A stretch of DNA of 25,609 nucleotides from a virus. Lineage: Duplodnaviria; Heunggongvirae; Uroviricota; Caudoviricetes. The translations under genes and the position numbers were made by a program. Below, piece after piece: positions 1,360 to 24,309 of this stretch. Below the pieces are notes generated by a model. That model did no database searches. It was given only the letters and a program-made list of their open reading frames with translations, and was not told the DNA's origin. The DNA is taken from the IMG/VR virus record IMGVR_UViG_3300045988_034843, one strand, 5' to 3'. Position 1 is the stretch's first letter; every line of letters begins with the position of its first letter.

Positions 1360-1375
1360 GGCCGCAAGAGCGGCC
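1360..1375. terminator. Hairpin GGCCGC-AAGA-GCGGCC between convergent genes
   Basis: 6-bp GC stem with 4-nt loop directly after the stop at 1352 and overlapping the minus-gene stop at 1375; T-rich on the minus-strand side. Confidence 0.5.
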
Positions 1376-2103
1376 TATCGTTTCGCTTTGTGCTCGTCCC
1401 AGCACGTTTTGCACCATGCCATTAAGCCATCCGCATTTTGATTATTAGGGTAAAAGCTTGTTCGTTTTCTGCGGACATTACAAATTGGGCACCACTTCAT
1501 ATGGCGTGTATTCTTTGGGCCATCGAGACACCTTGCACACCACTTAGTCAATCCATCTGGATTTTTTGACGATTTCCTGAATTTTTCATATGGTAGGTTT
1601 ATTCTGCATCGCAAGCACTGCTTGCTACCACTTGAAACTCTGTTAGCTGATTCTTCTTTTGGCGGCGATACAGAAGGTATTCTTGCTGGCTCTGATACTG
1701 CCTGAGGTGCTTTTTTAGATGACTGAGACGATATGTCATCACCAGGGAATCTTCCATGATATGCCGGACGCGTTGACACTCCAGGTGGAAGCTCAGCTGT
1801 AAACGGCTTTGGCTGAATCAGTTGCCTCTCTTTTGCTAACTCCTGCTGTTTATAATATGTCTGGATTACCGCACTATCATAAGCAGGAGGTGCGGAAATA
1901 TTAGGCGCATTACCTCCAGTTTTTTGAAACTGAGTAGAGGTGTGTTCTATCACCTGTGTACGATTAATCGTTATCTCCCCATCTTCGGTCTTTATCGTTT
2001 TGTTATGATTAACGACCGTACGATCAGAGATCTTAGTCTTGTTCTGGTTGATAACGTAAATAATCACCGCAACCACACCAACAACTATCCAGAAAACTTC
2101 CAT
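1375..2103 (-). CDS. Membrane-anchored protein with tandem C-x2-C-x22-C-x2-C zinc-ribbon-like repeats (242 aa); function unknown
   Basis: Track ORF; N-terminal hydrophobic helix (VFWIVVGVVAVIIYVI); C-terminus has two repeats CLRC...NPDGLTKWCARC and CPIC...NADGLMAWCKTC; GAGGAAAA RBS upstream of ATG at 2103. Confidence 0.7.
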   Translation of the reverse strand: MEVFWIVVGVVAVIIYVINQNKTKISDRTVVNHNKTIKTEDGEITINRTQVIEHTSTQFQKTGGNAPNISAPPAYDSAVIQTYYKQQELAKERQLIQPKPFTAELPPGVSTRPAYHGRFPGDDISSQSSKKAPQAVSEPARIPSVSPPKEESANRVSSGSKQCLRCRINLPYEKFRKSSKNPDGLTKWCARCLDGPKNTRHMKWCPICNVRRKRTSFYPNNQNADGLMAWCKTCWDEHKAKR

Positions 2104-2502: not shown

Positions 2503-3159
2503 ATGAACGCTCAACTCATCCCCGTATTCAACGGCACTATATCTAACGAAACAGCCCTACTTTGTAATGCCCGCGATCTGCACGCTTTTTTAGGTGTTAA
2601 AAAGGTGTTTGCAGCATGGATTACAAATCGCATATCAGAATACGAATTCATTGAAAATCAAGACTATATTTTGCTTTCCAATTTGGGAAAGCAAACATCT
2701 GGTAGAGGCGGCCACAACCGCAAAGAGTACCACCTCACCCTTGATACAGCCAAAGAGCTGGCGATGGTCGAGCGTAACGAAAAAGGTCGCCAGGTGCGAC
2801 GCTACTTCATTGAATGCGAGAAACGTTTAAGACAACAAGAAACAAAAGTGGAGAAGGTCTTGTCAGGCTTCATGCCCGCCATTATGGAGGCGATCAAGCT
2901 GGAAGACAAAAAAGAATACAGCGCCCCACTGAAGCCCGGCTACCGCAGCCTGATTCACTCGCCGTCTGGTGTTCTCGGCCTGACTGAGAACTCACTGCTG
3001 ATGAATCTGCTGAACCAGTTACAGGAAGACGGGCACGATGTATCTGGCGCGGCGGCGGAGCTGACCACCATGTTCTGCTACATCGTTGGTGTGAGCAAAT
3101 GCCTGCGTGATATCCAGACCCACGCGGAGTACATCAACGACAAGGCAGGGTTCTTCTGA
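2503..3159 (+). CDS. Antirepressor-like protein, AntA-type N-terminal domain (218 aa)
   Basis: Track ORF; GGAGA RBS 7 nt upstream; N-terminus IPVFNG...[10 protein letters not shown]...F..W...RI.EYEF.EN.DY resembles the AntA/AntB antirepressor domain as I recall it; C-terminal third is paralogous to the 85-aa protein at 1095-1352. Confidence 0.7.
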
Positions 3160-3280: not shown

Positions 3281-3607
3281 ATGAGCAGAAGATATGTCAA
3301 GGAGCTGGCTATAGAGTCTGGCACCCCTTTGGGTATCGTTCCTGGCTCCAACTATGCCAAGGCTTTAAACCGAGACTCTGTCGTCAAAGTTATATCAAGA
3401 GACATGAATATGGTCGGAGACGATCTCAGACGGTCAGAAAATCGTGTTTATGCTGAATATATAGTAAAGAACGGAAAAAAAATTGCAGCGCCTGCTGGCG
3501 GAAAATGGGCAATAGTGACAGGGAAAAACTCAAATGCAAGAGGAAAACCAGAAGCTAAAGGAATGTCCTTCGACAAATATGCAAAAATCTATTGGGCAAC
3601 CAAGTGA
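3281..3607 (+). CDS. Hypothetical protein (108 aa)
   Basis: ATG 3281 with GAGG 7 nt upstream (track ORF 3266-3607 trimmed to this ATG); AT-rich, lysine-rich; no motif I recognise. Confidence 0.55.
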   Translation: MSRRYVKELAIESGTPLGIVPGSNYAKALNRDSVVKVISRDMNMVGDDLRRSENRVYAEYIVKNGKKIAAPAGGKWAIVTGKNSNARGKPEAKGMSFDKYAKIYWATK

Positions 3608-4082
3608 TAACGAAGAAACTGAGTTCGAGGAAGTTGAGGAAGGGCTAAGTAACGAGATCATTCAACACCCAGATGCCTTCACAAGAGTTCTTGATCGCCC
3701 TGAAATTCAGGAGATAGTTGTCGCTCACCATGCGTTTCAGGGGCCGCTTCCTCCCCCCTATCTGCTTCGCGGGTATCAGGATATTTTACCTGATGCCCCC
3801 GAACGCATCTTCCAGTTGACGGAGAAGGAGTTTGCTCACCGCCAGAAAATGGAGGAAAAGGCACTTGACGGGGCTATTAATAGAGATAAACGTGGGCAGT
3901 GGTTTGGCCTGAGTGCAACTATTTTTACAGTAGCTTGTGCAACATTATTAGGTTTAACAGGTCATGAAGTTCTAGCTGGCACAGTGATCGGTACAGTTGT
4001 TGCAGTGGCTGGTATTTTCGTTCTTAGACAAAAACCAAGCATCAAGAAGAAATCTGAAGACAACAAACCTGAAGAAAAGTAA
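3534..4082 (+). CDS. Membrane protein with two C-terminal TM helices, possibly DUF2335-like (182 aa; alternative start 3579 gives 167 aa)
   Basis: Track ORF; overlaps the 3' end of the previous gene in another frame; conserved-looking stretch PLPPPYLLRGYQDILPDAPERIF...HRQ then hydrophobic segments FGLSATIFTVACATLLGL and VIGTVVAVAGIFVL; followed immediately by a terminator. Confidence 0.6.
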   Translation: MQEENQKLKECPSTNMQKSIGQPSDNEETEFEEVEEGLSNEIIQHPDAFTRVLDRPEIQEIVVAHHAFQGPLPPPYLLRGYQDILPDAPERIFQLTEKEFAHRQKMEEKALDGAINRDKRGQWFGLSATIFTVACATLLGLTGHEVLAGTVIGTVVAVAGIFVLRQKPSIKKKSEDNKPEEK

Positions 4083-4103
4083 GCCCGCGCTGCGGGCTTT
4101 TTT
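4082..4103 (+). terminator. Rho-independent terminator AGCCCGC-GCT-GCGGGCT + T6
   Basis: 7-bp GC-rich stem, 3-nt loop, T-run 4098-4103, directly after the stop at 4080-4082. Confidence 0.75.
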
Positions 4104-4175
4104 GTGGACGAAACAAAAGTCAGTGCTACACTCATTGACGCCACATTGAGGTGGCTTATAGATGGAAATTTCACA

Positions 4176-4337
4176 ATGAAAAAAGCATTTGCTGCACTGT
4201 TCGTTTTGTTGTCTCTGGTAGCTTCAACTCAGGCCTTTGCCGGTCGTTGTCAGCACGACAGCGACACTGCTGCTGACGGCTCCCGCTGCGGTGGGCGTTC
4301 TGCGGATTCCCGCCCGGGTGGCGGTGGCATTCGTTAA
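4176..4337 (+). CDS. Small predicted secreted peptide (53 aa) with N-terminal signal sequence
   Basis: Internal ATG of track ORF 4104-4337; MKKAFAALFVLLSLVASTQAFA looks like a Sec signal peptide with AFA cleavage motif; mature part Cys/Gly/Asp-rich; weak RBS. Confidence 0.4.
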   Translation: MKKAFAALFVLLSLVASTQAFAGRCQHDSDTAADGSRCGGRSADSRPGGGGIR

Positions 4338-4342
4338 AAACA

Positions 4343-4358
4343 AGGCCGCGAAAGCGGC
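4343..4358. terminator. Hairpin GGCCGC-GAAA-GCGGCC shared by convergent genes
   Basis: 6-bp GC stem with GAAA loop; the minus-strand reading is followed by TTGTTTTT, so it most plausibly terminates the minus-strand lipoprotein gene. Confidence 0.55.
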
Positions 4359-4360
4359 CT

Positions 4361-4372
4361 GTGACATGTCAC
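4361..4372. repeat. 12-bp perfect palindrome GTGACATGTCAC (copy 1 of 3)
   Basis: Exact palindrome abutting the hairpin at 4343-4358; overlaps the stop codon of the lipoprotein gene. Confidence 0.6.
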
Positions 4373-4749
4373 GCAACGCAATTATTACCGCGCCATGTAA
4401 CATTTTTAATAATCTTATCAGCACCAAACTCAACGTAAACAGAGCAACTGAAATGGAGTGTATAACCGCCATCAGTTGTTGCGTATGTGTTTGAATATAT
4501 AGTATTACCAATTAGATTAGACGTAGTATTATACGTTGTGGTTTGTGGTACGTTATAACTACCAGAGCTTGAGTAAACATACACTCTGTTTCCATCTGGA
4601 GATGTAAGCTCTCCCTGAGGATACCCCCACTGCTGAACCATTGCGTCTATACTCTGCCCGCGCCACGTAAGCATATTTCTTTCAAACTGTGCAGCTGACT
4701 GGCATCCAACGAGAAGCATAAATCCAAAAATCAAAAATACTTTTCTCAT
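4369..4749 (-). CDS. Putative lipoprotein (126 aa)
   Basis: Internal ATG of track ORF 4369-4785 with AGGGG RBS; MRKVFLIFGFMLLVGCQSA has a lipobox (LVGC); mature part Thr/Ser/Tyr/Asn-rich. Confidence 0.7.
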   Translation of the reverse strand: MRKVFLIFGFMLLVGCQSAAQFERNMLTWRGQSIDAMVQQWGYPQGELTSPDGNRVYVYSSSGSYNVPQTTTYNTTSNLIGNTIYSNTYATTDGGYTLHFSCSVYVEFGADKIIKNVTWRGNNCVA

Positions 4750-4834
4750 AATTACCCCTATCATGGAAAAACAGCACCAATCCACAAATTAACTAGTTAT
4801 TTTATTATTCTTCCGAACAATACAATTCCGAATA

Positions 4835-4960
4835 CTACAAAGCCGAACCATGCCGCTGCACGCAACAGAGATTCCAATTGAAACCCATTTTTATCAAAAT
4901 GTATGAATAGCATAAAAACGCTGCACATATTAGTACAATAAAAGTTATTTGAACCATCAT
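4835..4960 (-). CDS. Small hydrophobic peptide (41 aa), uncertain
   Basis: Own translation: AAGGAG RBS 4 nt before ATGATG at 4960, MMVQITFIVLICAAFLCYSYILIKMGF...; the track lists a different frame (4797-4985) for the same stretch, which lacks an RBS at its internal ATGs; only one of these, or neither, is real. Confidence 0.3.
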   Translation of the reverse strand: MMVQITFIVLICAAFLCYSYILIKMGFNWNLCCVQRHGSAL

Positions 4961-4968
4961 ATCTCCTT

Positions 4969-7443
4969 TTATTGCGGAGTGACATCCTGTGGTCGCCACC
5001 AGTATGTCTGGTTAAACTCTTTCTTCGAACGTTGCTCCATTTTACGCAAATAGCCTGGTGAAAAATACTCCTGCATCTGGTTAAAGATCATGTGATCGAG
5101 AGCCGCCTTCAAGTACCAGAGATTCGCACCAGGCATCAAACCTTTCCCCAGCTTCACCAGATCACCACCAGTCTGCTCACTCTTCCCTTCCACAGCATTT
5201 AACGGTATGCCCTGAGCAATCTTCACTACGTCATCAACCAGACCAGCTACCGGGCCAAGCATCGACGCCAGCGCGCCGCTTCCGTACCTAGTGTGATCTG
5301 ACAATAAAAAGTCACCGTAAAGGCCAAGACCACCACCTTTCAGTAGAGCACCAAGCCAGAATTTTGCGGCATCTTCTCCTGTCATCTCTCGAGGATTACG
5401 ACCAGACGCAAGGTCGTTAAGTTGCTGCGACAAAGCGCCAAGAATGGTCGTACTGGCAATAAACGTCGCAATATATGCCGCACGCCCACCAGCAGACGGC
5501 ATACCCATAGCGCGTGACCAGTGACGCATAACAACCGAGATAGGGAACGATTTAAACAGGAAAACACTTCTCGTTAATTCACCTTTCCATGTTCCACGCT
5601 GAATACCAGAACCGGTTATCAGTTGCTCACGTGCTCCCGGTGTAATAACAGCCATATCAACTTCTTCAGTTACGGCACCGAGCAGTTTACGCATTGCCTC
5701 AAATTTCACGCGTTCAGGCTCACCAAGATGTTTAACTGCTGAATCAGGGATACGCATAATGCTTTCCGGTGTCAGCATCGTATTATTACCGTTCCCCCAG
5801 TCCTCCTGTTTCGCCAGCTTCCATACGCTCCAGTCTGTGTCAGTAATCCCTTTGCTTTTCAGGATACGAAAATCAGAGTCATCGAGGCTACGAAGGTCTG
5901 GTGTCCGTGACACTACTTCTCCCAGGCTTCCCATCATGGTTACGCCATAGGCGCGCTTGTGCGCATCTGACCATGCTGTAAGCCCACTGGCACGCATTAC
6001 CGCCGTTGCCGCCCAACGAGACACTGACGGCCCCATATTATCCATCGCCCAGCGGTTAACGCTGCCAAGTAGAGATTCCATCGCCAGACCAGCGCGGCGC
6101 GCCCGCGCAAGTTCTGTACGGTTCGTTGGGTCCATAGCTTCAAGCTGGTTGCGGAATAACTGGTTCATTGGAAGGTTGGTAACCTTCGCAGACAGATACA
6201 TGGTTCCAAGATCAGAGAACGATGACAGCAACGCGGATCCGAGTCTGCTGGCAACCAGCCAGTTGCGGATATTGTCAGACCATCGCGCGATGTGCGGATT
6301 CGCTACAGGCTGTGTCTTTCCGGAAATAAAGTTGTACAGATTCTCTGTGTTGTTCGCCAGCCGCTCGACTTTACCGGTTTTACTCGGGTTAGCTGTTGCC
6401 GTTTCTGCCTTCACCTGATCAAGAAGAGAGCGGAAAACATGATCGGGGTTTGGGCCATATGTTTCCACCAGTGCAATATCTTTACTGATACCTTCCAGGT
6501 GACCGACCATGATTTCCCATAGAGAGCGATCGCCATAAAGTTGCTGATATTGCAGATAGGAATCTGCATCTTTGAAATGTATCTGTCGTGATGCATTACC
6601 ACGGTTAGCACGTGCGCCGGAAATTCGCATTCCGGTATCAGTAAGCTTATTCAGCCCACCAGTAGCGATCGTGTTATAAGCCTCTCCAAGAAATGAAGAC
6701 AACTCGGCATCGTTCATCAGTTGTCCATCGGCTCGGATATAATATTTGCGATCCAGCTTACCTATAACATCGCTAACCCACTTATCCTTTGATACTGCCC
6801 CAACCTTTTCCATAGAATGATGTTGAGGGATCCCCCAGTTTTCGAGATAGCCAATGTCCCCACCAGCATCATTAAACCGGCGGCGCAGCAGCTCTGTAAC
6901 TTCTCTCCACGCCTTAGCACCGTTTCTTGCTTTAGCATTGCCAGTATTTTGCCCCCGCATTTCATATACCAGGTCACGTACGCCCGCTTCATCTTCAAAC
7001 AGACCAAAAAAGCGAGGATCAACTGCTTCGAATGCCTCCTGCAATTGACTCAATGCATAATCACGGGTGGCTTTTGTTCTGGATTCAACAGAGAGGAAAT
7101 TAGATTTACCGTCTGCATTAAAAGCTATAGTACGGTTAAGAGCGCCAAGTTTCCCATCAGCCCCTTGATAGCTATTGATAAATTTATCCAATCTCTGACG
7201 CGCGGCTATAGTGAGAGCCACACGACGTTTCTTTAATGCCGCTTCTCGCTGTAATTCTTCAGATGCCAATTGTGCTGCTCGATATAGCCGCTCTGATTCG
7301 GAAAGTTGTCGCCACGACATAGGGTCATCACGAGCAATGGAGCGCATATTTCGATAAATGCGGTCTTCAATGTTCTGTATTTCTCGCGCCGTTAACATGC
7401 GCTGCGCCGCCTGCTGAACCGCTTGTATACATTCCTGTCTCAT
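4969..7443 (-). CDS. Large internal virion / DNA-ejection protein (824 aa), gp16-like by position
   Basis: Track ORF; last gene of the structural operon before the accessory island; size and position consistent with a podovirus ejection protein. Confidence 0.6.
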   Translation of the reverse strand: MRQECIQAVQQAAQRMLTAREIQNIEDRIYRNMRSIARDDPMSWRQLSESERLYRAAQLASEELQREAALKKRRVALTIAARQRLDKFINSYQGADGKLGALNRTIAFNADGKSNFLSVESRTKATRDYALSQLQEAFEAVDPRFFGLFEDEAGVRDLVYEMRGQNTGNAKARNGAKAWREVTELLRRRFNDAGGDIGYLENWGIPQHHSMEKVGAVSKDKWVSDVIGKLDRKYYIRADGQLMNDAELSSFLGEAYNTIATGGLNKLTDTGMRISGARANRGNASRQIHFKDADSYLQYQQLYGDRSLWEIMVGHLEGISKDIALVETYGPNPDHVFRSLLDQVKAETATANPSKTGKVERLANNTENLYNFISGKTQPVANPHIARWSDNIRNWLVASRLGSALLSSFSDLGTMYLSAKVTNLPMNQLFRNQLEAMDPTNRTELARARRAGLAMESLLGSVNRWAMDNMGPSVSRWAATAVMRASGLTAWSDAHKRAYGVTMMGSLGEVVSRTPDLRSLDDSDFRILKSKGITDTDWSVWKLAKQEDWGNGNNTMLTPESIMRIPDSAVKHLGEPERVKFEAMRKLLGAVTEEVDMAVITPGAREQLITGSGIQRGTWKGELTRSVFLFKSFPISVVMRHWSRAMGMPSAGGRAAYIATFIASTTILGALSQQLNDLASGRNPREMTGEDAAKFWLGALLKGGGLGLYGDFLLSDHTRYGSGALASMLGPVAGLVDDVVKIAQGIPLNAVEGKSEQTGGDLVKLGKGLMPGANLWYLKAALDHMIFNQMQEYFSPGYLRKMEQRSKKEFNQTYWWRPQDVTPQ

Positions 7444-7448
7444 TTAAT

Positions 7449-9251
7449 TTAACCTCTCAAGAAACACGCCACAGCGACATCAAACAGGCTGGAATCCTGT
7501 ATTGCCTGCTCACTTTCCCTGTTCGCTTCATCCAGTGCTTCACGCGCACTGCGCGATTGTGGATTACCATCATCATCCAGCACGGTGATTATCATGTCCG
7601 GAGATTCAAGCAGCGAGTCTTCAGCTATACGCAGATCAATATCTCCTGCCGGATCTGCCATCATTTTTTGTTCTGTCTGTTGCAATATCTTACCGGGCTC
7701 AAAAGGAGCTACTTCGTCTGGCGTCCTGACCTCTGCTGTTTTATAGAATGAAACAGCCTGAGTATTAAGTTCACTTTCAGCCTGCTGTCTCCGTGCCAGT
7801 TCTGCTCGAGCTTCAAAAAACTGACCGCCAGGCTCATGCGGTGCCAACGCGTTACGAGAAAATTCCAGGCGTTCTTGTGCCTGCCGGATTCGTTGGTCAA
7901 TATCGCGAAGTCTGGCCTGTTTATCTGATCGAGCACGAGATAAAGCCTTACCGCTACCGGCTGGATCTTCTGCAAGAATTTGTGCGCGCTGTTCAGTGAG
8001 ATTTTCAATAATTCGTTGGCTATTAGCGATTTCAGACTGGTAAACCTGTCTATCGCCACGCGGCAAAAGCTGCGCGGCCTGTTCTTCAAGCAACCGATTT
8101 TCTATAGCGCGCGCCGTTACTCCATCATCTACAGATGACAGAGCCTCATTAACTGCCTGAGACAGCAGACTCTTGCGTCCAGGAATTTCACTGAAAGATG
8201 CAGACTCAACAATGCTGGCAACGTCTACAGGTCTCCCCTGGCTAACATCAGACATGGCTTTTCGCAGAGCCTGAATGTGCGAATTACGCGAAAGCACGTT
8301 GATCGGCACGCCGGGAGCAATATCAATTTCAGCATGATGAGCGGCATTCGCCGCCAGTGCAGCATCGATATCAACTGGTGAAAAATTTGGTGCGCTTGTA
8401 GACTCGCCGCGAGAGTTAATAAATCTGCCGACACCACCAAACGCCACCCCAAGAACAGCATCAATAGCAATTGCCTGTCGATCCAACACATCATACTGGT
8501 TAGCCATTTCGCTATAGCCACCATCACGAAGCGTTTTTGCAGTAAGCCCACGCTGTGCCATACCGAACGCAATATTTGTACCTGCGGCATAGGCAATATC
8601 TGGCGTTGCACGTACTGCTGTTGCTGCGGCGCGTCGCACTGAACTTTCACCCGTCCGCGCAAGCTGAGCCGCCACACCTTCCGCCAGCGCACCACCAGCA
8701 CGTAACCCGAGGCTCATAGGGATCAGTGTTCCGGCACCAGCAGTAATACCCTGCACTAATCCCGCTTCCTGCGCCGTCCTGAAATCAACACCCTGTGCTG
8801 TCAGCCGTTCAAACTCAGAAAAACCCTGTAGAGAAGTTACCGCCGCAGCACCTCCGACCGGACCACCGAGCGTTGTACCGACAACAGCCTGCCCGCCCAT
8901 ATCGAACAACCCATAAAGAACCTGCCCGGCGGTTCCGGTTGTCGCGGCATCAGGCGTCAGCCGCTTAACCTGCTGTTCTGCTAGTTTTCTCTGCTCGGCA
9001 ATGTATGAAACTGAAGTATCATTGAGCGAGGTGTTTTCGTTAATAAACTGAGCAATCGGGGATACGATTTTATCCATCCCTGCCCATAGCAACTGATCTG
9101 GCTTTGCCACCAGCCCGGAGTACAAACCAGACAATGCCGCTCCTACAGCATTGTCGAAAAAACCAACATCGCTGTTAAAGCCCGCTGGATTTGATGCTGC
9201 TTCGTCAAGCTGCTGATTCTGGTTTACTGGATTAAGGCCAAAGTAACTCAT
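7449..9251 (-). CDS. Internal virion / ejection protein (600 aa)
   Basis: Track ORF; Ala/Gly-rich, start overlaps the upstream stop (translational coupling). Confidence 0.6.
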   Translation of the reverse strand: MSYFGLNPVNQNQQLDEAASNPAGFNSDVGFFDNAVGAALSGLYSGLVAKPDQLLWAGMDKIVSPIAQFINENTSLNDTSVSYIAEQRKLAEQQVKRLTPDAATTGTAGQVLYGLFDMGGQAVVGTTLGGPVGGAAAVTSLQGFSEFERLTAQGVDFRTAQEAGLVQGITAGAGTLIPMSLGLRAGGALAEGVAAQLARTGESSVRRAAATAVRATPDIAYAAGTNIAFGMAQRGLTAKTLRDGGYSEMANQYDVLDRQAIAIDAVLGVAFGGVGRFINSRGESTSAPNFSPVDIDAALAANAAHHAEIDIAPGVPINVLSRNSHIQALRKAMSDVSQGRPVDVASIVESASFSEIPGRKSLLSQAVNEALSSVDDGVTARAIENRLLEEQAAQLLPRGDRQVYQSEIANSQRIIENLTEQRAQILAEDPAGSGKALSRARSDKQARLRDIDQRIRQAQERLEFSRNALAPHEPGGQFFEARAELARRQQAESELNTQAVSFYKTAEVRTPDEVAPFEPGKILQQTEQKMMADPAGDIDLRIAEDSLLESPDMIITVLDDDGNPQSRSAREALDEANRESEQAIQDSSLFDVAVACFLRG

Positions 9252-11761
9252 TGCGGAATATCTCCGGAGAATCTCTGACGCTTCTGTGTCAGATCAAGAA
9301 CAACGGGAGAACCATCATCTTTTAGCAGATAACCAGTACCAAGTTTCACCAGGTACTGACTATCGCCGTAACTTTGCAAACCATACTGACCAGGCGGTGT
9401 TTTTATCCCTGTGCCAACAACTTGTTCATTCCAAGCCTGATTAACCTGCTTATCGAATTGCTCTGCAGACATTCCCCACGGCAAAAGAACATTCCCCATT
9501 CCGTTATAGTCATGCACGCCACCTGTAGCTACGTTAACAGCCTGTTTCCAGATATCATTGTCAATTTCGCCTGATACCACGCCTTTTTTCGCCATCACAC
9601 CAGCGTAATAGTCCTTTGCGATCTCGTATGCCATTGATGCCCCCTGAGCATCACCAGCAAATGCATCCTTAACCATGTCAGAAAACTCAAGGCGGAGATC
9701 AGCATCTTTAGGCATCGGAATACCTTTCGCGTCATCAGTACCTTTACGAGCCGCCGCGCCAGCAAGAATTGTCTGCGCAGCGGTTTCAGGAGACACGGAA
9801 ACATCCGGATTAAACCAGTTTTTTTCTGCCAAAATACCACCTGGCTTATCCATCAGTATCCCGGCAACGGCAGCAGATGGAGCGTTGGCACTGATCTGCT
9901 GTAGTGCTGACATATACACCTGCCCACCACCAGTGCTCTGCCTGATGGTATCGAGATATGCTGCCTGTTGGGAAACGGGCGCATCACGAAAGAAAACACC
10001 GATCTGATTGGCCTCGTCTTTGGAAAAGAACGTCAGTGGAGTGCCATATGACTTAGCAAGGTCACTGACCTGAGCAGCACGCAAGGCAACGCTCTGTCCA
10101 AAGTTATCCTTATTGCTCATGTCGATAGGCTTTGTCTGTCCTGCGGCAAGAGAGAACTGTACAGGATCAGCCTGTCGCTGCTTTATCACCTGACTTGCAG
10201 CCGACACAACGTTGTCATAAAGAGCGGCTCGTGCCGCATAACCCTCCCCTGTCTCACCAGTATCCGGGCGTAATTGCTCAACATATGCTGTAATGCTGCT
10301 TGTCGGCATGTTGCGGAAAGAGCCTATATACTGTCCGGCGATTTGCGTATTTCTGAACTCGGTATATCGCAGGTTTCCTTCTCTTACTCCATAAGCTGCA
10401 ATAAAATCAGCCTCACCAGGTGGGTTAGGAAATTCAACGCCACGCATATACGCAGCTGTCGCATCGCGAACCTGGCTGTCAATCATCGTTTTATATTCAG
10501 CCTGCTGCTGCCGACGCAGTTGATCCGCCTGTCGCATAAAACTTGCCTGCGCCTCAGGAGATGCCGCATCGAATGCTGCATTACCGGTATAGCGTTTGGT
10601 GTTGGTTGGAATTGTTGATAAACCAAGTGCTGCACTGACACCAGCAGTTAACTGCTGATCACTGTATGGCTGGCTACCGTTCTCATGATGGATAATGGCT
10701 GCACAAAGCGCCTTCAGGGTATCAGGATTAGATGCATCGAGAGGCTCATCAGCAGAAACGCCAAGTTGTTCGCACACTGCTTTGATATACGACATAGTGT
10801 CATTTTTATCAGCAGGCGGTGCCCAGCGATTAATTATCTCGCTGACGGTATCAATACCCTGCCTCTGATACGACATCAGGTTCCGCCCTAATGCACGAAT
10901 CCCGTGTTCAGGTGTTTCGAATTTAGCAAATCGACCATCATCACCGGTCTGGCCTACCCACGGATTAGTTTTGCTGTATTCGAGATTTCCTGGGTTATTG
11001 TTGCGTATGCCACGGGCACGCTCGGAAGAGTCACTATCTGCTACAGCACGGCGAGCTCCAGCAGCAGTATCACTTAACTCGCCATTACTTTGGATGAATG
11101 CGGTCGCATTGTTTGCCGACCACTGGGACAATGCAGCATCAGCAACCTTCTCTTTAAACTCGATTTTCTTGGCCTGGATTTGCTCGTTGCTCCAGCCATG
11201 TGCAACACCGTACTCCTCAATTTGCTGGAAAGTTTGTTTGTTAGCCAATACGTATGCGGCGTTGTCGCCATACAATGCTGCGGCATTTTTACCATTGTTC
11301 AGCAGTGTCGCCTGAAACTGGCCTTCTTCGTAGGCATTAATTTGCCCTATCTCGTGTCGCCCGGCCTGCGTAGTGAACTGAATGCGCTGCTGCTGCGCCT
11401 GCTGCATGAAAGCATTACGAGCCTGTTCATCCGGCAGCGACATAGCCAGTTGTTCGACCTGAGCATCAAACTGCTGCGTATACTCATGGCCTTTTCCAAT
11501 AGCATTTTTCCCTTTCAGGTTAAGCAATCCTGTTTCAGGATTATTCAGCAGATCGCTGCTTATCTGACTGAGGTTAAGAGATGCCTCCTGAGCCAGAGCA
11601 ATATTGGCACGCTGTTTTGCCTGCCCCAAAACATCAATTGCCTCTGTCCCTGCCCGAACAAAAGCATCACCAATACCTTGCTGAGAAAACGTCTGCAAGC
11701 CTGCTGACTGAACTCCACGACTCTCAACCTGACGTCCGGATACTGTTGGTACGACTGGCAT
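9248..11761 (-). CDS. Internal virion protein with possible cell-wall-hydrolase motif (837 aa from ATG 11761)
   Basis: Track ORF 9248-11836 trimmed to the ATG at 11761, which has a GGAGG RBS and overlaps the upstream stop as TAATG; contains GIRNNNPGNLEYSKTNPWVG...FETPEHGIRALGRNLMSY, which I recall as typical of phage virion-associated muralytic domains (unverified). Confidence 0.6.
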   Translation of the reverse strand: MPVVPTVSGRQVESRGVQSAGLQTFSQQGIGDAFVRAGTEAIDVLGQAKQRANIALAQEASLNLSQISSDLLNNPETGLLNLKGKNAIGKGHEYTQQFDAQVEQLAMSLPDEQARNAFMQQAQQQRIQFTTQAGRHEIGQINAYEEGQFQATLLNNGKNAAALYGDNAAYVLANKQTFQQIEEYGVAHGWSNEQIQAKKIEFKEKVADAALSQWSANNATAFIQSNGELSDTAAGARRAVADSDSSERARGIRNNNPGNLEYSKTNPWVGQTGDDGRFAKFETPEHGIRALGRNLMSYQRQGIDTVSEIINRWAPPADKNDTMSYIKAVCEQLGVSADEPLDASNPDTLKALCAAIIHHENGSQPYSDQQLTAGVSAALGLSTIPTNTKRYTGNAAFDAASPEAQASFMRQADQLRRQQQAEYKTMIDSQVRDATAAYMRGVEFPNPPGEADFIAAYGVREGNLRYTEFRNTQIAGQYIGSFRNMPTSSITAYVEQLRPDTGETGEGYAARAALYDNVVSAASQVIKQRQADPVQFSLAAGQTKPIDMSNKDNFGQSVALRAAQVSDLAKSYGTPLTFFSKDEANQIGVFFRDAPVSQQAAYLDTIRQSTGGGQVYMSALQQISANAPSAAVAGILMDKPGGILAEKNWFNPDVSVSPETAAQTILAGAAARKGTDDAKGIPMPKDADLRLEFSDMVKDAFAGDAQGASMAYEIAKDYYAGVMAKKGVVSGEIDNDIWKQAVNVATGGVHDYNGMGNVLLPWGMSAEQFDKQVNQAWNEQVVGTGIKTPPGQYGLQSYGDSQYLVKLGTGYLLKDDGSPVVLDLTQKRQRFSGDIPQ

Positions 11762-12306
11762 TATAATCCTCCGGGTAATCTGGTTCCTGCTGCTGCCCCG
11801 ATTGGCGCAGGAGTGCTTTGAGTAAACGGACTCCACGTCCCACCAAACATCTGGTACGCACCGTATGCCTTCAGAGGCGCAGTGAGCAATGTTGTTGCTG
11901 CTCCCACATTCCCCTGTTTACGGGCTGAACTGGCTTCTGCTTTATAGTTGGCAGCCTGAACCTGATAACCGTAAGCCTCGCGTTGCGCGTTATTCACCGT
12001 CGTCAGCGAATCAAGAGCGCCAAACTGGGCAGTGTCGCCAAATATATCCAGCGCGTTACCTGTAGATAAATCAGCGCCGGTAGCCCCCATTGTCGCCGCC
12101 TGTGTACCAAGCCGCTGTCGGGTCTCTCTGCGTCGTTGCTCAGCTTCAGCGTTACCTCTGTTTATTGCATCATTTGCCTGAGCTGTGGCTATATCTGCGT
12201 TCGCTTCTGCAACCTTCGAGGCATACTTTCCCTGTTGGTACTGGGTGTATGCCTGAATGCCACTCATGGCGAGCATTGCGCCACCAGCAATAACCGGATC
12301 GCACAT
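11761..12306 (-). CDS. Internal virion protein B-like, T7 gp14-like (181 aa)
   Basis: Track ORF; N-terminus MCDPVIAGGAMLAMSGIQAYTQYQ resembles the T7 gp14 N-terminus (MC..A.....SG.QA) as I recall it; TAATG coupling at both ends. Confidence 0.55.
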   Translation of the reverse strand: MCDPVIAGGAMLAMSGIQAYTQYQQGKYASKVAEANADIATAQANDAINRGNAEAEQRRRETRQRLGTQAATMGATGADLSTGNALDIFGDTAQFGALDSLTTVNNAQREAYGYQVQAANYKAEASSARKQGNVGAATTLLTAPLKAYGAYQMFGGTWSPFTQSTPAPIGAAAGTRLPGGL

Positions 12307-18753: not shown

Positions 18754-19050
18754 TCACTCCTGTTCACTGGCCTCTTTGGCCATCTTCAAATACTGTTCAG
18801 GGCAATGCGCCATAACGCGCTGAAACAGTTCCAGCGCCAGATTGCGTTGCCCCTCATTAAATGCCATTGCCATAGCGTCCATCGGTGAGATAGCGGAAAA
18901 CACACGGCCTTTCTCCAGCACCGACCAGACAACGCGACGCCCCTGTTCACTGCTCATGACAAAGCAAATGTCATCAATTTCACGCTGTGCCATGTCACGT
19001 TGCTTACGGGCGTTTTCTTCTTTCAGTTGATCGTCTTCGTAATCTGTCAT
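18754..19050 (-). CDS. Hypothetical protein (98 aa)
   Basis: Track ORF; ATGA overlap with the portal stop; charged, no motif recognised. Confidence 0.5.
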   Translation of the reverse strand: MTDYEDDQLKEENARKQRDMAQREIDDICFVMSSEQGRRVVWSVLEKGRVFSAISPMDAMAMAFNEGQRNLALELFQRVMAHCPEQYLKMAKEASEQE

Positions 19051-20726
19051 TGTGATTGCCCACCCTGACCACTAACTGCATTCGCCATAGCTGACAAAAC
19101 ACTCGGATCCGAAGTTTTAGCTTCGCTTAGCGTCTTGGCACCCTGTGCCGCCGCCATCCCCATCGCCATCATTTGTTGCTGCTGTTGTTGCTGTGCCCGT
19201 TGCTGGCGAGCCTGCTCAACCTGTTCCTGCGGAACAATGACGGTTGGAGACACTCCGGACATATCAGCGAATGCATCGATCGCCTGATCAACGTTGAGTT
19301 TGTCGAGAGCTTCTGGTTTCGCTTGCGCAAGTTGACCAATGAAGTTGACCGTAGACACCAGACTGGACAGGCCGATAGACTTCTGCGCCTGAGCCATGAC
19401 GGAAATGTATTCGACCTTCAGGGGCATACCTTCCATCGCGTCAGGCGGTGGCGGCAGCATGTTTTTACGCACCATCATCGAGAAAGCGCGGTCAATGAGA
19501 GGATTAAGACATTCGTCGTTCAGACGCTCCAGAACCGGCCCCAACATCAGAAGTTTTTCTTCTTTCATTTCGATCACCGCTTCAACAGGCATCGAGCGGG
19601 TATTGATGTTCTGCAACATCATGAACAGATCGACAAAGTAGGCGCTGTTAATGATTTGACGGGTGTCCTGAATGTCTGCCACCAAATCTGCTGTACTGGG
19701 GTTAACCAGATAAGCAGGCCTGAAACCATCCTGACCAGTAATCTGATCGATATACGTGATGTCGCCAGGAAGAAGGGAGGCACGCTGATTCTTGAGGGAA
19801 GTCGGAGCAACCATCGGCGGATTGGTGGCTTTATCAATCAACTGCGACTTGCGCTTCTGGAGAAGCTGCAATGCCTTAACAGGTCCAAGCGCCAGCATAC
19901 CCGGGCATGATGATCCATAAACATCTTCGCCGTTAACTTCCCAGCGCGGAGCCATAATTGGAAACTCATCGAATCCGGACTCACGCAACAACTTGTCGTT
20001 ATCGCCACCAACCTCGTAATAAACCGATTTGAATGGCTTGTTCTTGCTATCCAGCTTCGATGTATCGCGGTCAATGTTCGGGTAAACCGAATGCATCACT
20101 TCAATCCACTTCTCGTAGGTTCCGCTTTCCCACATGCTTTTTACGGATTCGCTGACGTTATTTAGCCCGAACTCCTGAACAAGCTGACGAACAGTCATAG
20201 AGAACTTGCGAAAACAGGTGTCCACACTGCCACGAGGTGAGTTAGCCAGGTAGTAACTGCCTATCGGGAATGGCATTGTGCGAATGATGTCCTCGTCATC
20301 CTCCAGCACTGCCATTGCACCAGTGCTGTATGTGCCGAGGCTTCCGTATAACTGCGGCAGCGACTGATAGAGATTCGACTTATTGAACATATCGTTCATG
20401 CGGTTCTGCACCGCCTCAAGCCACAACTTAACAGGGCCATAATCCATCATTTCAGGATCTGGCGTAGCCAGGCGAAACCACGGACGCGCGGGGCTTGTGA
20501 TGCCTGACATCATGCCGCTGGCGAGAGTGCGCGCCGCCATAGTCCCGGTCGAATCAATAATGCGTGTATTGCGTCGATCGTTACGGTTAACCTCAGAAGT
20601 CAGAAAGCGGGAACCACGCGGGTTGATGTAATCACTCAACTCGCGCCAGTGCGGCTCGAACGACTGACGCTCGCTTTCAAGTTGTGCGAACTGTTTGTTC
20701 AATCGCTCTTTAGTTGTTTCCGCCAT
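19047..20726 (-). CDS. Portal protein (559 aa)
   Basis: Track ORF; position between terminase and scaffold/capsid, size appropriate; Gln-rich C-terminal tail; GGAGTCATTGAAATG initiation region. Confidence 0.6.
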   Translation of the reverse strand: MAETTKERLNKQFAQLESERQSFEPHWRELSDYINPRGSRFLTSEVNRNDRRNTRIIDSTGTMAARTLASGMMSGITSPARPWFRLATPDPEMMDYGPVKLWLEAVQNRMNDMFNKSNLYQSLPQLYGSLGTYSTGAMAVLEDDEDIIRTMPFPIGSYYLANSPRGSVDTCFRKFSMTVRQLVQEFGLNNVSESVKSMWESGTYEKWIEVMHSVYPNIDRDTSKLDSKNKPFKSVYYEVGGDNDKLLRESGFDEFPIMAPRWEVNGEDVYGSSCPGMLALGPVKALQLLQKRKSQLIDKATNPPMVAPTSLKNQRASLLPGDITYIDQITGQDGFRPAYLVNPSTADLVADIQDTRQIINSAYFVDLFMMLQNINTRSMPVEAVIEMKEEKLLMLGPVLERLNDECLNPLIDRAFSMMVRKNMLPPPPDAMEGMPLKVEYISVMAQAQKSIGLSSLVSTVNFIGQLAQAKPEALDKLNVDQAIDAFADMSGVSPTVIVPQEQVEQARQQRAQQQQQQQMMAMGMAAAQGAKTLSEAKTSDPSVLSAMANAVSGQGGQSQ

Positions 20727-22076: not shown

Positions 22077-22088
22077 GTGACATGTCAC
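22077..22088. repeat. 12-bp perfect palindrome GTGACATGTCAC (copy 2)
   Basis: Identical 16-mer context (CGTGACATGTCACAAT) to copy 3; sits between the stop at 22072 and the terminator at 22093. Confidence 0.6.
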
Positions 22089-24297: not shown

Positions 24298-24309
24298 GTG
24301 ACATGTCAC
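24298..24309. repeat. 12-bp perfect palindrome GTGACATGTCAC (copy 3)
   Basis: Overlaps the stop codon of the gene at 24306-24644 and lies about 40 bp from the terminator at 24231-24256. Confidence 0.6.

Follow-up and report, generated by a model that had tools for sequence, protein, structure and literature searches.

In an Escherichia coli prophage, a variable accessory zone lies between the genes for internal virion and ejection proteins and the tailspike side of the genome. Two unrelated cassettes, exchanged independently of each other, meet there at the terminator of the late operon. One encodes a 53-aa secreted-type peptide and the other a 126-aa lipoprotein; the two are not a pair but separate, swappable accessory genes. 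The locus is a hotspot for envelope proteins, and is an ordinary but useful lead to phage-exclusion factors.

The window, meaning the whole stretch of 25,609 nucleotides analysed here, is an E. coli prophage of the epsilon15/phiV10 type (Uetakevirus). Prophages in E. coli CE10 and in other complete genomes match it at 100% identity, APEC O1 at 99.9% and phage vB_EcoP_ZX5 (genus Uetakevirus) at 99.6%. Its late operon, on the minus strand, encodes terminase, portal, major head, tail and internal virion proteins, with products of 862, 600 and 824 aa, and the 862-aa internal virion protein has matches to endolysin and tail-injection transglycosylase families. The final large gene of the operon, upstream of the cassette slot, is that of the 824-aa virion structural (ejection-type) protein (4969-7443, minus strand; phrog_684, 'virion structural protein'), the equivalent of phiV10p20. 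Related phages carry tailspike-type receptor-binding proteins. A spanin reading of the locus was dropped because a complete Rz/Rz1 pair, in the lysis cassette, is present elsewhere in relatives. The neighbouring upstream gene encodes a DUF2335 membrane protein, which was considered as a relative of SieA and set aside when tblastn against phages gave no SieA-annotated match. The vB_EcoP_ZX5 paper does not discuss the peptide or the lipoprotein gene, and nothing was found in the literature on the accessions, the PHROG ids, 'transmembrane anchored protein' or Uetakevirus with lipoprotein.

The peptide gene and its Cys-loop domain

The two convergent open reading frames of the earlier note, one for a signal-peptide protein and one for a lipoprotein, are both annotated in RefSeq, and are judged from their conservation and purifying selection to be real genes. 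The peptide gene occupies 4176-4337 on the plus strand (ATG 4176, TAA 4335-4337; WP_000708858.1) and its 53-aa product reads MKKAFAALFVLLSLVASTQAFA followed by GRCQHDSDTAADGSRCGGRSADSRPGGGGIR. It belongs to phrog_14503 (E 2e-40), an uncharacterised cluster, and has 57 homologues at the 90% cluster level. Its dN/dS is 0.16 against the Pectobacterium copy; against Klebsiella phage BUCT711 the synonymous sites are saturated and the ratio is not computable.

A rule-based reading gives a 22-aa signal peptide (4176-4241), with K2K3 in the n-region, an 11-residue window from residue 5 at KD 2.9, and A-F-A before G23. The predicted cleavage would leave a mature 31-aa Cys-loop peptide (4242-4334). Such a small-x-small site stands ahead of G-x-C in 54 of the 57 homologues, and a conserved export signal of the SPase I type (Sec) is supported. 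It is improbable that the peptide instead stays uncleaved in the inner membrane as an MgrB-type small regulator of a sensor kinase or transporter. The name of its NCBI family, 'transmembrane anchored protein', would suit such a regulator, as would the direct attachment of the Cys-loop domain to transmembrane segments in some larger proteins. However, the A-x-A site just before the invariant G-x-C follows the classical signal peptidase I pattern and is also kept where the domain is N-terminal, and neither Pfam nor NCBIfam related it to MgrB or to another small regulator already known.

The peptide is one copy of a Cys-loop mini-domain with the consensus G-N-C-x2-P-x-D-x-A-x-DGSRCG-x-R-[SA]-A-x2-RPGG. 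Across 27 homologues C25 and C38 are invariant, residues 34-49 (DGSRCGGRSADSRPGG) are invariant or at least 90% conserved, and T31 and A33 are variable. The mini-domain appears to be uncatalogued, with no Pfam or NCBIfam model, and occurs in 471 representative clusters at E<=1e-3. The motif regex was matched by 94 of the best 146 representatives, in which the domain is stand-alone (37), N-terminal (20), C-terminal (32) or internal (5). Outside the stand-alone peptides it belongs to larger proteins, as an extracytoplasmic module at the N- or C-terminus, with fusions to SH3_3, NucA/NucB DNase and a pilus N domain. AlphaFold2 confidence for the mature peptide (pLDDT about 45-62) is too low for fold inference, and a sequence-profile search of the PDB returned nothing. 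Scans of Pfam, NCBIfam and PADLOC with the peptide, the lipoprotein and seven alternative proteins of the slot found nothing significant, the weak matches, all far from the cut-offs, being HxsA3 (E 0.07), MarB, LPAM_1 and adenylate cyclase; PADLOC gave no defence match for either the peptide or the lipoprotein.

Terminators lie on either side of the peptide gene, at 4081-4099 and 4343-4360. The first, the intrinsic terminator of the upstream DUF2335 gene (plus strand; 8-bp stem with 6 GC pairs, then TTTTTGTGG), sets the peptide gene apart as a unit. For the earlier description of the gene as a moron there are these flanks and, as for a promoter of its own, a candidate extended -10 (TGCTACACT, 4121-4129, plus strand), which the promoter scan left unflagged and which is suggested by a GCTACACTC block kept in the Klebsiella (TACAAT) and Pectobacterium copies. 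The putative 5' leader may hold a small hairpin, GCCAC-ATTGAG-GTGGC (4140-4155, plus strand), read by eye from the alignment; in Pectobacterium it becomes GCCGC...GCGG, a two-sided change that is weak with four sequences only. Rfam gave a sub-threshold Trp_leader match alone (3992-4105), due to the upstream terminator.

The lipoprotein gene and the late-operon terminator

The lipoprotein gene faces the peptide gene from the minus strand, at 4749-4369 (ATG 4749, TGA 4371-4369; 126 aa; WP_157905739.1). A rule-based lipoprotein signal, MRKVFLIFGFMLLVG (4749-4705), precedes the lipid-attachment residue C16 (codon 4704-4702) in the lipobox L-V-G-C16. This lipobox is kept in 24 of 24 aligned homologues, and of 118 full-length relatives 103 have, under a strict regex, the cysteine behind a hydrophobic segment; the ten listed among the 15 that it missed have relaxed lipoboxes, e.g. 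LPGC, SAGC and LQGC. Next to the lipid cysteine, at position +2, stands A or Q, never D (Gln in the window), and the protein is predicted to be an outer-membrane lipoprotein. The rule-based signals support envelope targeting of both products, as first proposed. Two further conserved cysteines, C102 and C124, probably form a periplasmic disulfide. The protein falls in phrog_3716 (E 5e-64), an uncharacterised cluster for which 'Membrane associated protein' is annotation only, and whose profile begins at Met11, so that the signal peptide is truncated. There are 37 homologues at the 90% cluster level and 259 relatives in a profile search; the family is widespread in diderm bacteria of many phyla. 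Its dN/dS is 0.05 against Klebsiella and 0.28 against Proteus, and not computable against Salmonella, where synonymous sites are saturated. A match in Burkholderia phage vB_E332 (28% identity, E 7e-4), on the strand opposite to the virion genes, is too weak for use.

The stop codons of the peptide and lipoprotein genes are 5 nt and 8 nt, respectively, from the GC-rich hairpin between them, AGGCCGC-GAAA-GCGGCCT, which has a 7-bp stem and a GAAA loop. The earlier note had placed this hairpin at 4343-4358, and its extent is corrected here to 4343-4360. In a 61-nt context its folding energy is -20 kcal/mol on the plus strand (z -2.2) and -21.5 kcal/mol on the minus strand (z -3.1). The earlier note had the genes share this one hairpin. 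By position they do, but a T-run (TGTTTTTAAC) follows it on the minus strand and none on the plus strand; a bidirectional intrinsic terminator would carry a U-tract on both, so the hairpin reads as a canonical terminator for the lipoprotein/late-operon transcript only. It is an annotated terminator in phiV10, and is invariant in five phages with differing flanking genes. In Klebsiella phage BUCT711, GTTTGTTGG is inserted at the plus side of the hairpin.

Adjoining the hairpin is a 12-bp palindrome, GTGACATGTCAC (4361-4372), which holds the lipoprotein TGA and is invariant while the flanks change. The window has further exact copies at 22077 and 24298, and phiV10 has copies at 2262 and 19493. 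The palindrome beside the hairpin marks the cassette-exchange junction.

In Salmonella the lipoprotein gene starts 10 nt past the 824-aa gene, the last ejection-type virion gene. It keeps its same-strand slot after the last large virion gene in IMG/VR contigs as well as in prophages of Salmonella, Proteus and Klebsiella, though the large proteins differ (824, 928, 1127 and 650 aa). Because of this slot conservation and the 10-nt gap, we take the lipoprotein gene to close the late operon. A sigma-70 promoter scan of 3400-5200 gave four sites against 3.0 expected by chance, none usefully placed, with no convincing promoter ahead of the lipoprotein gene and no lysogenic promoter. The gene lies in an accessory region of the prophage and has a moron-like low GC content (35-44%; the virion genes have about 50%). 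A moron with its own promoter is not supported, since the scan revealed none for it and the gene reads as the end of the late operon. Upstream of it, at 4835-4960 on the minus strand, is a candidate ORF for a single-pass membrane protein of 40/41 aa (MMVQITFIVLICAAFLCYSYILIK...; KD maximum 3.18), with an AAGGAG Shine-Dalgarno directly 3' of the 824-aa gene stop. It has no family match, and its place in phiV10 and phiv142-3 is taken by small 2-TM ORFs.

A late-operon position raises the alternative of a role for the lipoprotein in the lytic cycle of the phage itself, by sparing progeny from lysing cells and debris, by tuning the envelope before lysis, or by inhibiting the phage's own ejection transglycosylase until release. 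Its place as the terminator-bounded end of an operon that encodes an internal virion protein with a transglycosylase-type region is in keeping with this, as is the fact that BLIP-like folds, which the predicted structure resembles (see below), are often enzyme inhibitors. Yet phiV10, phiv142-3 and BUCT711 have nearly identical virion genes and unrelated genes in place of the lipoprotein, the lysis cassette with its spanins is complete elsewhere, and the lipoprotein family is also found without any phage genes. We consider a lytic function rather unlikely.

Two independently exchanged cassettes

The distribution of the two genes separates them. Among 5426 complete E. coli genomes, the peptide gene is present in 445, the lipoprotein gene in 34 and both in 29. 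In 76 IMG/VR contigs with an identical peptide and hairpin, the peptide faces at least eight unrelated genes: an Ant-type gene (17 contigs) and genes for a 98-aa polytopic membrane protein (about 18), a 137-aa lipoprotein (10), a 283-aa signal-peptide protein (7), a 149-aa protein (7), a 186-aa signal-peptide protein (6), the 126-aa lipoprotein (5) and a 46-aa 2-TM protein (2). Most of these alternatives are lipoproteins, signal-peptide proteins or small membrane proteins, and every PHROG in the slot is annotated 'unknown function'; the alternative slot genes include phrog_8691, phrog_6118, phrog_11983, phrog_3075 and phrog_8772. The stop codon of the lipoprotein gene is the exact point at which homology ends. 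The link between the two genes that the earlier note had drawn is not supported by these observations.

It is very improbable that peptide and lipoprotein form a functional pair, as ligand and receptor or toxin and immunity, held by the shared hairpin. The genes are adjacent and both products exported, 29 of the 34 E. coli genomes with the lipoprotein gene have the peptide gene beside it, and nine of 11 identical IMG/VR copies of the lipoprotein face the peptide. However, all of this co-occurrence comes from a single, nearly clonal prophage lineage of E. coli, whose lipoprotein copies are all at least 99% identical, and it covers few of the genomes with the peptide. The peptide never stands opposite the diverged lipoprotein copies of Salmonella, Klebsiella and Proteus prophages, and it also occurs in an unrelated Pectobacterium prophage with a tail tip.

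The lipoprotein family and a possible role in phage exclusion

The AlphaFold2 model of the lipoprotein (pLDDT 85) suggests a BamE/BLIP-like alpha-beta fold with long beta-hairpins. Foldseek matches in the PDB have E >= 0.1 and indicate a generic fold-class resemblance only; phage proteins annotated SmpA/OmlA are among the matches in BFVD. There was no match to Pfam SmpA_OmlA at E<=1, and a sequence-profile search of the PDB gave two non-significant matches only. As modelled, the protein resembles BamE/SmpA_OmlA and BLIP-like proteins (OsmE, YjgB/DUF4309 and BtiO) in being a lipoprotein in which a short helical segment packs against an antiparallel sheet, and differs from them in its identity of about 10-20%, its much longer beta-hairpins and its two extra conserved cysteines.

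The family travels as prophage cargo and as cargo of at least one integron cassette. A distant member in Marinobacter lies inside an integron-type array, in which an integrase (Phage_int_SAM_4 and Phage_integrase) is followed by small same-strand genes. The lipoprotein ORF stands between TAACAAGTGC...GCAAGCGTTAG and CTAACCAGTGC...GCAAGCGTTAAA, attC sites read by eye with the pattern TAAC-AGTGC...GCAAGCGTTA, and these features mark it as an integron gene cassette. Another copy is in an integrase-linked island of a deltaproteobacterium. Distant members in gut alphaproteobacteria, their ORFs read by eye, are in stable chromosomal synteny near rsmD, an ftsB-like gene, smpB and uvrB, which argues for a cellular envelope role, perhaps merely borrowed by the phage.

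The chromosomal homologues, together with the low GC typical of acquired cargo, are also what would be expected of morons that serve host fitness or virulence in the manner of lambda Bor/Lom, altering serum resistance, adhesion, envelope stress tolerance or colonisation and not phage sensitivity. The lipoprotein cassette is found in the extraintestinal pathogens CE10 (neonatal meningitis), APEC O1 and IAI39. The association with K1 pathogens can, however, follow from phage host range, the CE10 prophage encoding an endosialidase tailspike; the cassette is in only 34 of the 5426 complete genomes, Pfam and NCBIfam gave no match to Bor/Iss, Lom/Ail or another virulence family, and many unrelated envelope proteins beside ejection genes better suit conflict between phages. 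A host-fitness role is unlikely on balance, though it carries some weight. The lambda-type morons are similar in being accessory prophage envelope genes of deviating GC bounded by terminators (the peptide gene lying between two); there is no homology, the lipoprotein gene is apparently co-transcribed with late genes, and the peptide promoter is a candidate only.

Exclusion of phages at the envelope, by the lipoprotein and with the peptide as a separate module, is the reading we favour, though in our view it falls a little short of an even chance. Superinfection exclusion had been proposed earlier by analogy with Cor and Llp, and is plausible on position and context rather than on that resemblance. 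Llp and Cor act on FhuA for siphoviruses. The lipoprotein has a lipobox cysteine in common with T5 Llp and phi80/N15 Cor, and no family, profile or fold match to them; its gene adjoins ejection-protein genes, not the gene of the receptor-binding protein.

The closer parallel is positional. In P22, sieA lies between gene 16 and the immI region with the tailspike gene. The order in the window is similar: ejection-type proteins, small envelope proteins, a terminator and Ant-type gene(s), with the tailspike beyond, as seen in related prophages. In both, an envelope-protein gene directly follows the genes for ejection proteins, with the anti-repressor region and the tailspike after it. The analogy is one of position only, with no sequence or fold relation detected and with the window belonging to Uetakevirus rather than to the P22-like phages. 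SieA is a polytopic inner-membrane protein, whereas the lipoprotein has one N-terminal hydrophobic segment with a lipobox and a soluble beta-rich domain. From its place in the envelope, SieA blocks DNA injection by superinfecting phages, and escape mutations map to the ejection proteins gp16 and gp20 (PMC10883804).

Given a slot filled by at least eight mostly envelope genes, and the position of P22 sieA, we read the lipoprotein as a probable obstacle to envelope crossing. It would most likely be a binding protein, placed in the periplasm or the outer membrane, that hinders incoming phages. Its target may be the trans-periplasmic ejection conduit, the peptidoglycan-cutting step of that conduit, or an outer-membrane component needed by phages. 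The peptide would most likely be a separate periplasmic binding module with a target of its own, the two not working together. If the lipoprotein were transcribed only with the late genes, it would not protect the lysogen.

A bolder version is doubtful: that the slot is a dedicated, fast-exchanged arsenal of envelope entry blockers, the lipoprotein a new class of outer-membrane exclusion protein jamming the podovirus ejection conduit, and the 28-aa Cys-loop a new and widespread periplasmic binding domain. If true, at least eight unrelated, uncharacterised factors would be swapped at a terminator-plus-palindrome junction, and one of the families involved, that of the lipoprotein, would also be integron-borne.

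If neither gene affects phage infection, they are merely two hypothetical prophage genes. Two families without a Pfam or NCBIfam model are in any case flagged here, the BamE/BLIP-like lipoprotein, also carried by an integron, and the Cys-loop mini-domain. To our knowledge, P22 SieA is essentially the only protein for which the exclusion of short-tailed phages at the envelope is understood at the molecular level, and the locus offers a compact set of small, easily cloned candidates that share an exchangeable slot in common E. coli, Salmonella, Klebsiella and Proteus prophages. Exclusion factors help to determine whether a therapeutic or typing phage can infect K1 and other pathogenic strains.

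Two accessory genes at one terminator hairpin

Two conserved, exported and mutually independent accessory proteins are encoded at a recombination-prone terminator junction of this epsilon15/phiV10-type prophage (genus Uetakevirus), with the lipoprotein gene closing the ejection-protein operon. The surrounding 701 bases are 100% identical to prophages of E. coli CE10 and of further complete genomes; identity is 99.9% with APEC O1 and 99.6% with phage vB_EcoP_ZX5. As the earlier note had placed them, a 53-aa peptide ORF (4176-4337, plus strand) and a 126-aa lipoprotein ORF (4749-4369, minus strand) converge on a hairpin; both are listed in RefSeq as hypothetical proteins. Judged by low non-synonymous change, both are real genes: the peptide has a dN/dS of 0.16 (against the Pectobacterium copy) and the lipoprotein one of 0.05 (Klebsiella) and 0.28 (Proteus), with synonymous sites saturated and no dN/dS computable for the peptide against Klebsiella phage BUCT711 and the lipoprotein against Salmonella.

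The two genes do not form a unit, and the hairpin between them does not couple them: among 5426 complete E. coli genomes, 445 carry the peptide gene, 34 the lipoprotein gene and 29 the joined arrangement. The hairpin is present in 76 of 80 IMG/VR contigs with an identical peptide, and the gene ending there on the opposite strand varies: an Ant-type anti-repressor (17 contigs), a 98-aa polytopic membrane protein (about 18), a 137-aa lipoprotein with the lipobox LISAC (10), a 283-aa signal-peptide protein (7), a 149-aa protein neighbouring a 146-aa signal-peptide protein (7), a 186-aa signal-peptide protein (6), the window-type lipoprotein (5) or a 46-aa two-helix protein (2). The diverged copies of the lipoprotein in prophages of Salmonella, Klebsiella and Proteus are never opposite the peptide. 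A functional peptide-lipoprotein pair is unlikely, since this distribution speaks against it.

The hairpin (AGGCCGC-GAAA-GCGGCCT, 4343-4360) lies between the two stop codons. It is the late-operon terminator, since a T-run follows it on the minus strand only and the terminator behind the last late gene is annotated here in the phiV10 record; on the peptide transcript it forms a stable 3' stem with no U-tract. Together with the adjoining 12-bp palindrome GTGACATGTCAC it is unchanged in five phages with differing genes on both flanks. The palindrome contains the lipoprotein TGA stop, the identical TGA serves the unrelated 98-aa membrane protein in phiv142-3 and BUCT711, and DNA homology with most relatives ends at this point; the element is therefore a cassette-exchange junction.

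Exact copies of GTGACATGTCAC occur three times in the window: beside the late-operon terminator (4361-4372); 4 nt past a stop codon and immediately ahead of another terminator, adjoining the large terminase gene (22077-22088); and 33 nt upstream of a small terminase-like ORF, overlapping a minus-strand TGA stop (24298-24309). A one-mismatch copy lies at 18987-18998. In phiV10, copies stand at equivalent places (2262-2273, 19493-19504), and three sites have at most one mismatch, against 0.07 expected by chance. The palindrome looks like a boundary element of the late region or a site for a regulator to bind.

A predicted exported peptide with a Cys-loop domain

Peptide homologues form 57 clusters in Enterobacterales, and one copy lies within an unrelated Pectobacterium prophage with a Phage_Tail_Tip-type gene. 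Their alignment is consistent with the start at 4176 and not with a 77-aa GTG-extended version. The N-terminus has K2K3, a hydrophobic core and A-F-A preceding Gly23, and a small-x-small site stands immediately before the invariant G-x-C in 54 of the 57 homologues; from such rules and conservation we infer export and processing. A rival account is that of an uncleaved, membrane-anchored regulatory peptide. Upstream of the gene (4121-4155, plus strand) is a conserved GCTACACTC block with a possible extended -10, TGCTACACT, followed by a 5-bp hairpin (GCCAC/GTGGC) that is changed on both sides, to GCCGC/GCGG, in the Pectobacterium copy.

The mature peptide (31 residues) is a single copy of a small domain with two Cys 13 apart (12 residues between) and the consensus G-N-C-x2-P-x-D-x-A-x-DGSRCG-x-R-[SA]-A-x2-RPGG. 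Searched by profile against 1.84 billion representatives, the domain turned up in 471 proteins at E<=1e-3, and 94 of the best 146 representatives satisfy the motif. Among these 94, it makes up stand-alone signal-peptide proteins (37), directly follows the signal peptide of a larger protein (20), or lies C-terminally (32, several inspected ones with a hydrophobic, membrane segment directly before it) or mid-protein (5). Fusion partners include SH3_3, NucA/NucB DNase and a pilus N-terminal domain. Scans of the window peptide and of relatives that have the domain (20 against Pfam, 10 against NCBIfam) gave no match over it, and the predicted structure was uninformative. We read the domain as a probable extracytoplasmic binding or anchoring module.

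An old and mobile lipoprotein family

The lipoprotein has homologues in 37 clusters, and 259 by profile search. The start at 4749 fits their alignment; the 138-aa GTG-extended version and the phrog_3716 Met11 version do not. The lipobox (L-V-G-C16 in the window) is found by strict regex in 103 of 118 full-length relatives, with relaxed lipoboxes in the misses displayed; processing is deduced from rules and conservation. In E. coli, lipoproteins with a residue other than Asp at +2 are sorted to the outer membrane; as this residue is A or Q in the family, never D, outer-membrane localisation is predicted. Two further Cys, kept in 96 of 103 mature domains, suggest a periplasmic disulfide. The two can fairly be described as envelope-targeted prophage accessory genes; membership of the lipoprotein in the Cor/Llp type of superinfection-exclusion lipoproteins, the comparison drawn in the earlier note, fails.

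In the AlphaFold2 model (pLDDT 85), a pair of short helices leads into five long antiparallel strands. Foldseek matched it to SmpA/OmlA-annotated phage proteins in BFVD and reached only E 0.1 against the PDB, and Pfam SmpA_OmlA did not match the sequence. As modelled, the lipoprotein shares a fold class frequent in protein binding, a resemblance that does not place it in a known family.

Old as well as mobile, the lipoprotein family has members in Gamma-, Alpha-, Delta- and Epsilon-proteobacteria, Planctomycetes, Nitrospirota, Bacteriovoracaceae and Bacteroidetes. A homologue with 46% identity in Marinobacter sp. F3R08 (5880-6480 of that locus) is a gene cassette with attC-like sites on both sides, within an array of small genes on one strand (acetyltransferases, glyoxalase, ABM) adjoining an integron-type integrase. 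A deltaproteobacterial homologue lies on an integrase-linked island, and in gut alphaproteobacteria the gene is in conserved chromosomal synteny. A host-fitness or virulence role is a rival explanation. Phage defences have recently been reported in integron cassettes (bioRxiv 10.1101/2024.07.02.601719), which is context only and no evidence on this family.

The slot behind the ejection genes

The late operon occupies the minus strand, in the order terminase, portal, major head protein, tail proteins and internal virion proteins, continuing with an 862-aa protein, a 600-aa protein and a virion structural protein of 824 aa. Across the enterobacterial prophages examined, the lipoprotein gene always lies on the same strand, 3' of the last large virion/ejection-type gene: after a 10-nt gap in Salmonella, behind a 99-aa ORF in Proteus, behind a 928-aa large-protein variant in Klebsiella, and after a 219-nt AT-rich spacer in the window (GC 35-44% over 4400-5000 against about 50% in virion genes). 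A promoter scan of the region found none convincing for the lipoprotein gene. A rival reading is that the protein serves the phage's own lytic cycle as a late gene product.

Within this spacer, directly past the 824-aa gene stop, is an unannotated candidate membrane ORF of 40/41 aa (4835-4960, minus strand) that has a strong AAGGAG ribosome-binding site and would encode a single hydrophobic helix. A 62-aa ORF overlaps it in another frame, and small two-helix ORFs occur at the equivalent place in phiV10 (46 aa) and phiv142-3 (57 aa).

At four other loci (L081, L086, L091, L107; about 4190-5100), preceded by differing large ejection-type proteins (824, 849, 1021 and 1002 aa), the slot holds other genes: a 137-aa lipoprotein (phrog_8691) and signal-peptide proteins of 186 (phrog_11983), 283 (phrog_6118) and 146 aa (phrog_8772). 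The alternative slot proteins are mostly envelope-targeted, all in PHROG families annotated 'unknown function'.

A 182-aa DUF2335 membrane protein (phrog_3996, 'moron' category; 3534-4082, plus strand; own terminator 4081-4099) is another envelope protein of the accessory zone, directly opposite the lipoprotein in Salmonella prophages without the peptide. A 218-aa AntA-type anti-repressor (2503-3159) and a 126-aa ORF upstream of it (972-1352), both on the plus strand, have the C-terminal families phrog_450 and phrog_15539 in common, which suggests that part of the gene was duplicated or that an anti-repressor C-terminal module was swapped; Ant-type genes opposite the peptide in 17 IMG/VR contigs end in this C-terminus as well. 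A 242-aa protein (1375-2103, minus strand; phrog_6762, unknown function) has two zinc-finger-like stretches matching endonuclease VII, HNH and Lar-like restriction-alleviation families.

In the gene order of P22, sieA stands at the same relative position as the lipoprotein gene. The SieA protein of the P22 prophage acts in the envelope against the injection of DNA, and mutations that escape it map to ejection proteins (PMC10883804). The 862-aa internal virion protein (9248-11836, minus strand), which matches endolysin and 'tail injection transglycosylase' families, is likely a cell-wall-cutting ejection protein and conceivably a target of a periplasmic inhibitor. The function of the accessory proteins would be envelope-level interference with incoming phages, a tentative reading to which we give somewhat less than an even chance. 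Both proteins were already in databases as hypothetical; what is added is their hotspot context and two uncatalogued families.
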